DNA of 57,933 nt from Gammaproteobacteria bacterium. Lineage in GTDB: Bacteria > Pseudomonadota > Gammaproteobacteria > Ga0077536. The position numbers and the translations under genes were made by a program. The stretch is from NCBI GenBank assembly GCA_016874535.1, contig VGUA01000005.1, forward strand, positions 1-57,933, in the 5' to 3' direction. Positions 15,063 through 19,238 of this stretch are shown one piece after another. The notes beneath the pieces are model-generated. The model was not told where the DNA came from. It saw nothing but the letters and a program-made list of their open reading frames with translations, and made no database searches. How positions within the stretch are numbered: the first letter of the stretch is position 1; every line of letters starts with the position of its first letter.

Positions 15063-16780
15063 ACCAGAACTCCGGCCCGTCACCCTTGGAACTGCGCGCG
15101 CTGTTTCGAATCCTGCTGGGCCCGGAACGCGGGTATTACTGGCTGGCCATCGCTTATGGCGTGGCCATGAGCGTGCTCACGCTGGCCGTGCCGCTGTCCG
15201 TGCAGATTCTCATCAACAGCATCGCCAACACCGCCCTGATGCGGCCGCTAGTGGTGCTCGGCATCGCCCTGTTCTCGCTGCTCGGACTGTACGGCCTGAT
15301 GTACGCCCTGCAGACCTGGGTGATGGATCGCTTCGAACGGCATTTCTTTGCACGCGTAAGCCGGGAGATCATCCTGCGCAGCCTGCATGCCCGCTATGCC
15401 GCCGTGGAAAGCGTGAATCGCGAGGAGCTTGCCAACCGCTTTTTCGAAATCGTCACCGTGCAGCGCAATCTGCCCTCCCTGTTCATTGGTGGGTCCGCAT
15501 TGTTCCTGCAGGCGCTCGCCGGCTTCATCGTGGTCTCGGCCTACCATCCGGCATTTCTTGCTTTCAATGCCACACTGATCCTGGCCGTGTGGGTGGTGTG
15601 GGCCATCTGGGGTGGGCGCGCCACGCGCAGCAAGATCAAGGCATCCAAGGCGAAGTTCCGGCTGGCACACTGGCTGGAGGAACTGGCGCGCGCCAATGCA
15701 TTCTTCAAATCCGAGCGGGCGATTCATTACGCGGTGGACCGCTCGGACGGTTTCATCCGGGATTACCTCAAGGCCCACCGCACCCACTTCAAGTACAAGT
15801 TTGCCCAGCTGCTCGTCTGCCTGCTCCTTTACGCACTGGCCAGCGCCTCGCTGCTGGTGGTGGGGGGCTAGCTGGTAGTCAACAGTGCACTCACCCTAGG
15901 CCAGTTGGTTGCTGCAGAACTCATTCTCTCGGTGATTTTCATCGCCATCGCGCGCCTGCCGGATTATCTGGATCTCTGGTACGAGCTGTGTGCGGCGGTA
16001 GCCAAGCTCGGTGATTTCTACGCCATTCCCCTGGAGGCGCCCATCGCCGGTGAACGCCTTGCACCCGACGAGCACGGGCTCCGCCTCGATGAGGTGGTGT
16101 GCAGCTTCCATGGTGACAGGCTCCGCTTCCATTTTTCTCTGGAGCCCGGTGCGCAGATCATGGTGGTGACCAGCGCGCAGCGCCTGCAGAAAAGTCTCAT
16201 CGATCTGCTGCTGCGTCATCTGGCTCCGGAGGCTGGCATCGTCAGCCTCGGTGGTCGCAATCTGGCGGATCTGGACCCGCATCACCTGCGCGATCTGGTG
16301 GCCCTGGTCGACAATTCCGGCGCTCTCGAATCCTCCATCGCCGACAATCTTTCGCTCGGTGACCCCGGAGTGGATCGCACCGCGATGCGGGCGGTATTGG
16401 AGGAGGTGGATCTCCATGATGAGATTTCACGATTGCCGGAAGGTCTGGACACTGTGCTCGGTCCTTTCGGATATCCACTTTCCCGCTCGGAAACCATCCG
16501 CATGAAGATCGCCGGCGCGCTGCTGGCCGAGCCGCGGGTGCTGATTCTCACCGAGGTTTTCGACACCCTTTCGCTCCGGCACCGGCGCCGCATCTTGCAG
16601 GCCATCGGCAGGCGCCGCGCTCTGGTGCTGCTCGACTTCAGTACGCGTCGTGATATCGAGGAATACACCGGCTACCTGCTGGTGCGGCCAGAGGCCCAGG
16701 AGCTGCTGCCCTCGCTCGACGCACTGATCGCCCGCGAGCAAGATGCGCCTGGCGCGGAGGGTGGGGTGCAAGGCACATGA
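15059..16780 (+). pseudogene. ABC exporter (TMD plus degenerate NBD) interrupted by an in-frame TAG at 15869-15871
   Basis: ORF-track pieces 14666..15871 and 15905..16780 are in the same frame; read-through gives VGG*LVVNSALTLGQLVAAELILS, the typical type-I-exporter TM6 motif. Start uncertain (CTG 15059 overlapping the SDR stop, or TTG 15086). Confidence 0.8.
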
Positions 16781-17814
16781 AGACGCCTTCCTCGCAGCCT
16801 TTTGCCCAGGCGCTGCTCGACCGCTTTGCCAGCGTGCGCGAACTCGCTCCGCCGCGGCCCGCGCGTCACATCGCCATCATCATCCTGCTGTGCCTGGTGA
16901 TGCTCGTGGTCGGTCTCTGGTGGTTGCCCTGGGTGCAGACCGCCCCGGGCAGCGGCACGCTGATAGCGCTGGACCCGCAGGGTCGCGTGCAATCCGTGAC
17001 CGCGCTGGTGAGCGGGCGCATCAAGGCCTGGCACGTGCAGGACGGGAGTCGCGTGAAGAAAGGCGATCTGCTGGTGGAAATAGTGGACATGGATCCGCGC
17101 TTCCTGCAGCGGCTGGAGGCTGAACGCGCAGCGGTAAATGCAAAGTTTGATGCGGCGCGTGCGGCAACGGAGACCGCGCTGCTGGACGTCGAACGCAAAA
17201 CCCGTCTGTTCGAGAAGGGCCTTGCGGCACGGCGCGACAGGGAGGCAGCCAACATCCGCTACAAGGAGCTGCTGGCGGCGCAATCCAGCGCTGCCGCAGA
17301 AGTCGCCAAGGCAGAAACTCAGGTGGCGCGCCAGACGACCCAGCGTGTGCTGGCACCACAGGATGGGGTGGTGGTGCGCAGCGCCGCACTCGATACGGCC
17401 ACCCTGGTGAGAGAAGGCGACGAGTTGTTGAGTTTCGCGCCTTCGGCAAGCAAGCGGGCAGTGGAAATCTACGTCAACGGGCTCGATGCGGCGCTGGTGC
17501 AGCCGGGGCGGCGCGCTCGGTTGATGTTCGAAGGCTGGCCCGCCGTGCAGTTCAGCGGCTGGCCGTCCGTGGCCGTCGGGACCTTCCCCGCGATGGTGCA
17601 TTTCGTGGACCCGGCCATCTCGGCCAACGGTCGGTTTCGGGTGGTGCTGGTGGAGGAGCCCGGAGCGCCGTGGCCGGATGAGCGCTTCCTGCGCCTGGGC
17701 GGCAAGGCCAAGGGCTGGGTGTTGCTCAATGAGGTGCGCCTTGGTTACGAGTTGTGGCGGCAGCTCAACAGCTTTCCGCCCGAGGCAACCGCGGCCGCGG
17801 GACCAAGCCCGTGA
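16777..17814 (+). CDS. HlyD-family membrane fusion protein
   Basis: N-terminal TM, LPWVQTAPGSG, lipoyl-like VSGRIKAWHVQDGSRVKKGD, coiled coil, FEGWPAVQFSGWPS; ATGA overlap with the ABC stop. Confidence 0.92.
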   Translation: MKTPSSQPFAQALLDRFASVRELAPPRPARHIAIIILLCLVMLVVGLWWLPWVQTAPGSGTLIALDPQGRVQSVTALVSGRIKAWHVQDGSRVKKGDLLVEIVDMDPRFLQRLEAERAAVNAKFDAARAATETALLDVERKTRLFEKGLAARRDREAANIRYKELLAAQSSAAAEVAKAETQVARQTTQRVLAPQDGVVVRSAALDTATLVREGDELLSFAPSASKRAVEIYVNGLDAALVQPGRRARLMFEGWPAVQFSGWPSVAVGTFPAMVHFVDPAISANGRFRVVLVEEPGAPWPDERFLRLGGKAKGWVLLNEVRLGYELWRQLNSFPPEATAAAGPSP

Positions 17815-19238
17815 ACCACCGGCGATGGGCCGCCCTGATGGCGTCGTGGCTCGCCACGACCTGCCTCGCCGATGACATCCTGGAGATGTAAGACGTGCTG
17901 CGTTCCTCGTTCCAGCACTTCCCCCAGATCGTGGCGGCAGAAGAAGGAATCAATGCCAGCGCCGGGCGTGTGCTCGCCAGCGAAGGCGCTTTTGATCTCC
18001 AGCTCGAACAGAAAACCCAGACACGAGCAGCCGGCTATTACGACGGCACCGTGATTGACTCCAAGGTGGTGAAGCCTCTGCCGGACTTCAACACGCGTCT
18101 GTACGGCGGCTACCGCATCGCCGATGGGGCGTTCCCGGTTTACGAAGACGAGTACCAGACCAACGGTGGGGGTGAGTTCAAGGTCGGTGCGATCTTCTCG
18201 CTGCTGAAGGATCGCGATATCGATGAACGGCGACATGCCCTGCGGGACAGCCGTCTCGCGCTCAGTCAGAGCGAACTCGAGGCTCGGCTGGTGCAGCTTT
18301 CCGTCCAGCATCGCGCCATGCGCGGCTATCTCGGCTGGCTGGCCGCGGGACGTGCCCTGGAAGTCCACCGCGATCTGCTGACACTCGCCGAGACTCGACA
18401 GGCAGGCCTCGTCTCGCGGGTGGAGGATGGCGATCTCGCGGCGGTTTACCTCAACGAGAACCAGCAGTACATCCTCAAGCGCAAGGGTCGGCTGACCGAG
18501 GGCGAACGCCTGCTGCGCGAGCGCGCCAACCGGCTCGCCCTGTACCTGCGCGATGATGAAGGCCGTCCGCGCATCGTGGAGGGTGCTTCCATGCCTGAAG
18601 GATGGCCTGAGCTTGGCGAGGTTCCCGCCGACGGCATGGACGCCACCATTGCTGCCGCGCTTGCCGTACGACCTGAACTCGGTCTCAAGGACGCCGATAT
18701 CGAACGTGCACGCAATGATCTGGCGCTGGGGCAGAATGCATTGAAGCCGCGGGTGGATCTGAATCTGGAAGCCGCGAGGGATGCCGGCGGCGGCAGCATC
18801 ACGCGGGAAGACACGGACGCCATCGTGCGACTGGAGCTCTCCATCCCGCTGGAGCGTCGCCAGGGTCGAGGCAAGGTGGCCGAATCGCGCGCCAAGATGG
18901 CGCAGCTGACACTGGAACGCCAGCTGGCCTCGGACCGGATCGCGGTGGAGATCCGCAACCTGTCGAATGACCTGCTGGCCGCGGAGCAGTTTGTCACCTT
19001 GGCGACGGAAGAGGTGGCGCAGGCCACGCTGCTTGCTCGCGCAGAAGCGGAACGCTTTGCCAATGGCGCCAGTGATTTCTTTCTGGTGAACCTGCGCGAA
19101 GAGGCGGCCGCTGATGCCCGTCTGCGCTAGGTGGATGCACATCTGCGTTATCTGCTGGCGCTCGCGGATTTCCACGCGGCGACCATGCGCCTTGAAAAAT
19201 TCCTGATTCCCGACGCGCCCCTGGACACGGCGTTGTGA
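17811..19238 (+). pseudogene. TolC-family outer-membrane efflux protein with in-frame TAA (17889-17891) and TAG (19128-19130)
   Basis: One frame from GTG 17811 (signal-like MNHRRWAALMASWLATTCLA, GTGA overlap with hlyD) to TGA 19236-38 (GTGA overlap with the next gene); OEP repeats (LKPRVDL, GASDFFLVNLRE) lie between the two stops. Confidence 0.82.

Follow-up and report, generated by a model that had tools for sequence, protein, structure and literature searches.

In-frame stop codons in a tripartite exporter operon point to its recent inactivation in a Lake Tanganyika gammaproteobacterium

An exporter operon interrupted by nonsense codons

The window studied here is the whole of contig C5 (VGUA01000005.1, 57,933 bp) from the 3.08-Mb draft genome, in 189 contigs, of a gammaproteobacterium (GCA_016874535.1, hereafter G000). 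From the list of open reading frames (ORFs), the sequence and the translations, four plus-strand genes lie in a row at this locus, coding for an ATP-binding cassette (ABC) exporter protein, an HlyD-type membrane fusion protein, a TolC-like outer membrane factor (OMF) and a DUF2189 membrane protein (Table 1). The ABC gene is interrupted by an in-frame TAG (amber) and the TolC-like gene by a TAA (ochre) and a second TAG. Very probably, this accessory tripartite (type-I-secretion-like) exporter was recently inactivated by point mutations in a nearly clonal gammaproteobacterial population of Lake Tanganyika, as a case of ordinary early gene loss. Judged from the assemblies, the two ambers are genuine and have effectively reached fixation in this population, while the ochre was found in the source contig alone.

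The initial annotation of this region had described three in-frame stops without any frameshift, and its layout of the operon holds. There are no insertions or deletions relative to the orthologues in any of the three exporter genes, and the hlyD frame is open over its 345 aa. The ends of the TolC-like gene are fixed by GTGA overlaps with hlyD (17811-14) and with the DUF2189 gene (19235-38), both of which are present. The ochre directly follows a signal-peptide-like N-terminus, as had been proposed, and the second TAG lies 35 codons before the real stop, at codon 440 of 475.

The stop codons in independent assemblies

The exact HlyD protein of the window is encoded on 16 public contigs, 10 of which were compared with the window together with contig L064, found in the metagenome scan. 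The sources of these 11 contigs are JGI assemblies (3300020204, 3300020578, 3300020220, 3300021092 and Ga0194130) together with six SRA runs as re-assembled by Logan. Tran et al. 2021 (PMC8245535) list the four numbered JGI identifiers among their 24 Lake Tanganyika metagenomes, which were sequenced as Illumina 2x150 libraries and assembled per sample with metaSPAdes. Identity to the window is 99.94% or higher in all 11 contigs, over lengths of up to 9 kb.

The stop codons are split by haplotype class, with the two TAGs in every covering assembly. At the ABC amber (15869-71), none of the eight other contigs spanning the site differs from the window, and the TolC-like amber (19128-30) is kept in eight of eight. 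At position 17889, in contrast to the T of the source contig, all 11 other contigs have the G of a Glu codon. The protein records agree with this division: 14 contigs carry a 261-aa gene call for the ABC gene, and 14 have a record of the 439-aa TolC-like product, which lacks the TAA and stops at the amber, while the 411-aa piece made by the TAA is known from the 57,933-bp contig only, as one JGI and one NCBI entry. Public collections store the fragments of 261, 282 and 411 aa (cluster members P0006, P0010 and P0015) as separate proteins.

These comparisons bear on the idea, raised in the initial annotation, that the stops are consensus errors of a metagenome-assembled genome and that the cells have intact genes. 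For the two TAGs it is refuted, as both were reproduced in all covering assemblies, by two assembly pipelines and from several samples, and Illumina consensus substitution errors are in any case rare; as an explanation of the stops taken together, we consider an artefact very improbable. It retains some force for the ochre, which stands in a single contig and is a G-to-T difference, a class of change that library damage can also produce. Against an error at this position, the source contig has no further private difference in the 9 kb compared. The ochre is most likely a real and locally common variant, because metaSPAdes usually retains the path with the better coverage, an error being the other possibility. 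The TAA should accordingly not be read as a property of the population. In annotation, the three exporter genes are better described as one dead operon than as the five small proteins of the public records. More generally, independent assemblies of one population can stand in for read mapping when fixed lesions have to be told apart from private ones.

Sense codons of relatives at the stop positions

Intact orthologues were found for each interrupted gene. G007, a sister species within the genus, shares the gene order and has an intact 564-aa ABC protein and a 345-aa HlyD, without any of the stops; another sister species of the genus (G006) has an intact TolC-like gene of 475 aa; and locus L138 (GCA_032118835.1) codes for an intact ABC protein that is 87% identical to that of G000. 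The relatives carry Trp (GGWLV), Glu (LQMEDVL) and Glu (RLREVDA) at the three sites, in agreement with the earlier suggestion that the ABC amber arose from TGG. Gene lengths are equal across orthologues (1,695 nt for the ABC gene in G000, G007 and L138, 345 codons for hlyD and 475 codons for the TolC-like gene), so that at Trp262, Glu27 and Glu440 a stop takes the place of the orthologues' sense codon within a co-linear gene, as in nonsense pseudogenes.

We searched for relatives at 95 to 99% identity, which could serve to date the lesions, and found none; beyond the population itself, the nearest ABC proteins are those of L138 and G007, the latter with 82% amino-acid identity. Two apparent further lesions were discarded. 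The TTG start of the ABC gene is shared by the intact L138 orthologue, and the in-frame stops that G017, L050 and L052 show in their TolC homologues are probably due to alignments that overrun the natural stop, to judge from the C-terminal alignment.

Consequences for the channel and the ABC protein

The identity of the TolC-like protein is supported by sequence profile and by structure prediction. Pfam OEP matches it twice (89 bits), while the PDB sequence search and NCBIfam gave no match for the channel. An AlphaFold2 model of the G000 protein read through its stops, built on 18 sequences, has a mean predicted local distance difference test score (pLDDT) of 75 and a predicted template modelling score of 0.69, and displays paired long helices as in channels of the TolC type. 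With this model as Foldseek query, the top 44 matches are all TolC/OprM/CusC-type channels (E values of 1e-15 to 1e-5). Two OEP repeats and the combination of alpha-barrel and beta-barrel place the predicted protein in the OMF family.

On this model, the final helix of the barrel spans residues 423-457 (pLDDT above 90) and the amber at codon 440 cuts it in half; residues 441-466, behind the amber, are conserved in an alignment of 20 OMF homologues. Codon 27 falls at a position that is variable in the family, and a stop there deletes the entire mature protein. In the ABC protein, Trp262 is nearly invariant (16 of 19 aligned homologues), and the amber removes the last membrane segment or segments together with the whole ATPase-like domain. 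Both truncations take away conserved and structurally necessary parts, and loss of function of the ABC and TolC-like proteins through the two ambers is likely, as far as alignment and predicted structure can tell.

An exporter family with a degenerate ATPase domain

The ABC protein matches its family models only in part. Pfam ABC_membrane and ABC_tran both fall just under their cut-offs (24.2 versus 25 for ABC_tran), and NCBIfam models of the HlyB and NHLM type reach 95 to 113 bits compared with cut-offs of 725 to 853. A catalytically competent nucleotide-binding domain, such as type I secretion ABC proteins have, is not recognisable. Across the genomes and the loci L030-L063, degeneration of the Walker A glycines, of the LSGGQ signature and of the Walker B Glu marks G000 (ATPase-like domain, window positions 16140-16590), G007 and the entire main clade of the family. 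Only a distant clade (L054, L057, L060 and L061) has canonical motifs, with GxGKST and, in three of these loci, Asp and then Glu in Walker B. The degenerate motifs are a conserved trait of the family and not a sign of decay. The operon belongs to an uncharacterised exporter family with a conserved degenerate ATPase domain, and the reading of the stop codons is not affected by this.

HlyD relatives are encoded at 39 metagenome loci, most of which have the order ABC-HlyD-OMF, and the same order is found in G007, G008, G016 and G017. Another 69 genome loci encode HlyD relatives, a count that refers to the HlyD relatives and not to gene order.

Age of the lesions

Ratios of nonsynonymous to synonymous substitution rates (dN/dS) against the sister species, calculated by the Nei-Gojobori method, are low in all three exporter genes. 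Between G000 and G007, dN/dS was 0.114 for the ABC gene and 0.073 for hlyD, with synonymous divergence (dS) of about 1.0 in both. For the TolC-like gene it was 0.066 against G006 and 0.069 against G007 (dS of about 1.1), compared with 0.068 (dS 0.38) between the two intact genes of G006 and G007. In a three-taxon count for the ABC gene, 37 unique amino-acid changes and 113 unique third-position changes fall on G000, 19 and 82 on L138, and 46 and 89 on G007. Since dN/dS equals that of the comparison between intact genes and the G000 branch shows no excess, purifying selection appears to have acted on the genes through nearly the whole history of the lineage, and the lesions seem to be young. 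An old pseudogene can be rejected on the basis of dN/dS, the three-taxon test and the absence of insertions and deletions.

Recent inactivation of the exporter, one of the explanations considered in the initial annotation, is thus well suited to the two ambers, which stand at sense codons of the relatives, remove conserved parts, occur in all covering assemblies and look young. It does not extend in the same way to the TAA, an allele of a single contig.

Decoding of the stop codons

Full-length proteins could still be produced if a suppressor tRNA, leaky termination or recoding let ribosomes pass the stops. Some features of the genome would be compatible with this: the fixed in-frame stops confirmed by domain continuity or orthologues, seven in number, are all TAG, with two TAA and no TGA beside them, the broken genes have no second lesion, and the draft tRNA set is incomplete, tRNA-Trp and a few others being missing. 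ARAGORN found 45 tRNAs, one tRNA-SeC and one tmRNA in G000, and no tRNA with a CUA or UUA anticodon within this incomplete set. Release factor 1 (RF1) is intact (547 bits), and both codons terminate normal genes, as TAG ends 141 (8.5%) and TAA 127 (7.7%) of 1,657 long ORFs, with TGA at 84%. The residues replaced by TAG also vary from gene to gene (Trp, Glu, Lys and Glu in the cases that relatives or strong motifs reveal), and TAA is involved as well as TAG.

The predominance of TAG is unremarkable, because the codon usage of G000 leads us to expect 56-58% of nonsense mutations to give TAG, compared with 22-26% for TAA and 18-22% for TGA. With no CUA or UUA tRNA, an intact RF1, normal genes that end in TAG and TAA, and replaced residues that differ, the genome does not support stop-codon reassignment or systematic suppression. 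The initial annotation had judged reassignment unlikely, which agrees with these results, and the read-through that it had left open is among the least probable of explanations.

Dispensability of the exporter and decay elsewhere in the genome

The ABC protein and the channel are both present in only three of the 12 other genomes of the genus (G007, G008 and G012). G006 keeps the channel alone, with its SDR gene 53 bp upstream of the channel gene, and has no ABC gene anywhere in its genome; this sister species has deleted ABC and HlyD outright. In G000, the channel is one of six OMF paralogues, and the five other OMF (OEP) genes are intact. The loss was presumably tolerated as the system is dispensable, given the five remaining OMF genes, the few congeners that have the whole system and the sister species without ABC and HlyD.

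The operon is not a unique target, as the genome carries many other nonsense-broken genes. A scan for these with codon and hexamer scores gave 428 candidates, mostly antisense shadow frames, and a retrained six-frame coding-potential test reduced them to 86 and 115, the majority of which are ordinary same-frame gene junctions. Counting a gene only if a domain or family model spans the stop, at least seven other genes of G000 have confirmed in-frame stops (Table 1), in a scan of low sensitivity in which TGA cases may be under-detected. They include pilT, the amber of which recurs, in the same split gene, in two other Lake Tanganyika samples, and fliA.

Variation within the population and the course of the loss

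Several more lesions segregate in the population. In L016 (JGI 3300020204), a GG to AA change turns the codon of ABC Trp196 into TAA, and the DUF2189 gene has a 48-bp in-frame deletion (19511-19558); in L064, a 29-bp deletion (19671-19699) shifts the frame of DUF2189. We found no repeats at the break points of the DUF2189 deletions. The assemblies also differ by one missense single-nucleotide polymorphism (SNP) in DUF2189 and by one missense SNP in 4.2 kb of flanking genes, on a background of about three differences per 10 kb. Population variants in the cluster are therefore mostly disruptive, although the counts are tiny. As a separate observation, DUF2189 was not found adjoining the operon in more distant relatives, and it appears to be absent from this site in G006.

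Under recent inactivation followed by ordinary decay, the likely first hit would be the upstream ABC amber. It leaves about 900 nt untranslated before hlyD, and downstream expression would be lowered by nonsense polarity, which is an established mechanism. As a tripartite pump needs all of its parts, such a hit would free the rest of the operon, apparently including DUF2189, from selection, and later lesions may then drift or hitch-hike. The clustering of the lesions would thus come about because one hit releases the others, through polarity and through the interdependence of the parts of the pump.

Some observations weigh against this course of events. Both point variants within the ABC and TolC-like genes are nonsense, which fits pure neutral drift poorly, as nonsense is expected at about 3% of random substitutions in G000; this excess has to be read with the caveat that one of the two variants triggered the flagging of the window and that the counts are very small. 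Relaxed constraint is not seen at the species level, where a test at dS of about 1 is blind to a neutral phase of about 1% divergence. Finally, the contigs were retrieved by exact HlyD identity, so variants in HlyD are hidden.

The excess of disruptive alleles is what adaptive loss would predict, that is, continuing selection for the full removal of the exporter or its surface channel, be it as a phage or bacteriocin receptor or because truncated products in the membrane carry a cost. About 12 assemblies show, within a cluster of 5 kb, four independent disruptive alleles beyond the fixed ones (TolC-like codon 27, ABC codon 196 and the two DUF2189 deletions), beside flanks with a single missense change and despite the low expectation for nonsense. 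The 439-aa product of the fixed amber might still insert in the membrane, and the private TAA removes it wholly. Phages and colicin E1 use TolC as a receptor in E. coli, and in G000 other envelope and motility genes (pilT and fliA) are knocked out too. We nevertheless regard adaptive loss as rather unlikely: the numbers are very small, one allele is the ascertainment trigger, neutral pseudogenes are expected to gain deletions, and metabolic genes (the Baeyer-Villiger-type monooxygenase [BVMO], the hydratase and the PobA-like hydroxylase) are broken as well, as general decay predicts. There is a similarly small chance that this nearly clonal lake lineage is being repeatedly selected to strip its envelope and surface machinery (channel and pump, pilT and fliA), with independent knock-outs in different samples even after the first hits were fixed; such selection could come from phages or from the burden of truncated membrane proteins. 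Should sequencing reads bear out the excess of disruptive alleles, the operon would offer a small natural case of selection still acting to remove an outer membrane channel.

Comparison with known systems

Early gene decay by nonsense is already well known, and the operon resembles unitary bacterial nonsense pseudogenes, including those in which decay spreads through an operon after a polar upstream hit, in its single-base changes from sense to stop within co-linear genes, in orthologues that are intact or deleted in relatives, in a dN/dS that is not measurably raised and in the accrual of more lesions in the same operon. It differs from the usual examples in that its state is documented across many independent metagenome assemblies, which separates fixed from segregating lesions, and in that disruptive segregating alleles are denser than a simple neutral expectation.

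As an exporter, it is like the HlyBD-TolC systems and their channels (TolC, OprM and CusC) in its two OEP repeats, the TolC-type fold of the model and the order ABC-HlyD-OMF, and its ABC protein aligns best to HlyB-type and bacteriocin-exporter-type models. Unlike in those systems, the OMF finds no counterpart among NCBIfam models or PDB sequences, and the ABC protein has degenerate motifs and no peptidase domain. In E. coli, TolC-dependent phages and colicin E1 select loss-of-function tolC alleles. Those alleles share with the present case nonsense in the gene of an outer membrane channel and more than one independent allele in a population; here, in contrast, the channel is one of six OMF paralogues, genes unrelated to the envelope are broken too, and selection by phages or colicins would be hypothetical.

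TABLE 1 Exporter operon, its stop codons and other genes of G000 with confirmed in-frame stops. Positions without a contig prefix refer to the window.
Feature	Position	Strand	Details
ABC exporter gene (transmembrane and degenerate ATPase domain), now likely a pseudogene	15086..16780	+	TTG start, 564 codons; co-linear with the 564-aa orthologues of G007 and L138/P0014
HlyD-type membrane fusion protein gene, intact	16777..17814	+	345 aa; Pfam HlyD_3, Biotin_lipoyl_2, HlyD_D23
TolC-like outer membrane factor gene, now likely a pseudogene	17811..19238	+	475 codons; two Pfam OEP repeats; intact 475-aa orthologue in G006
DUF2189 membrane protein gene, intact in the window	19235..19978	+	Pfam DUF2189; overlaps the TolC-like stop
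Amber TAG, ABC codon 262, fixed	15869..15871	+	GG*LV; Trp in orthologues
Ochre TAA, TolC-like codon 27, private to the source contig	17889..17891	+	ILEM*DVL; Glu codon in 11/11 other contigs
Amber TAG, TolC-like codon 440, fixed	19128..19130	+	RLR*VDAH; GAG (Glu) in G006; 35 codons before TGA
ABC Trp196 codon, TAA (GG to AA) in one other sample	15671..15673	+	L016, JGI 3300020204
pilT (pilus retraction ATPase)	C2 ~53915-55060, stop C2:54767-54769	-	TAG at a conserved Lys; Pfam T2SSE spans the stop
fliA (flagellar sigma factor)	C13 9456-10112, stop ~C13:10100	-	TAA near the N-terminus; TIGR02479 match 1-223 spans the TAA
FMO/Baeyer-Villiger-type monooxygenase (BVMO)	C28:4060		TAG; Pfam domain spans the stop
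Enoyl-CoA hydratase	C147:824		TAG; Pfam domain spans the stop
DUF1631 gene	C142:2892		TAG; Pfam domain spans the stop
PobA-like FAD hydroxylase	C23:11530		TAG; Pfam domain spans the stop
STAS-APH kinase	C66:13116		TAA; Pfam domain spans the stop

Last, in-frame TGA codons were seen elsewhere in G000 at C11:30970, C20:28818 and C179:538, in thioredoxin-like or peroxiredoxin-like contexts (SWGSY*GC, FTGG*TAEC and GHW*PYC). Taken with the tRNA-SeC gene, these three look like selenoprotein genes rather than pseudogenes.

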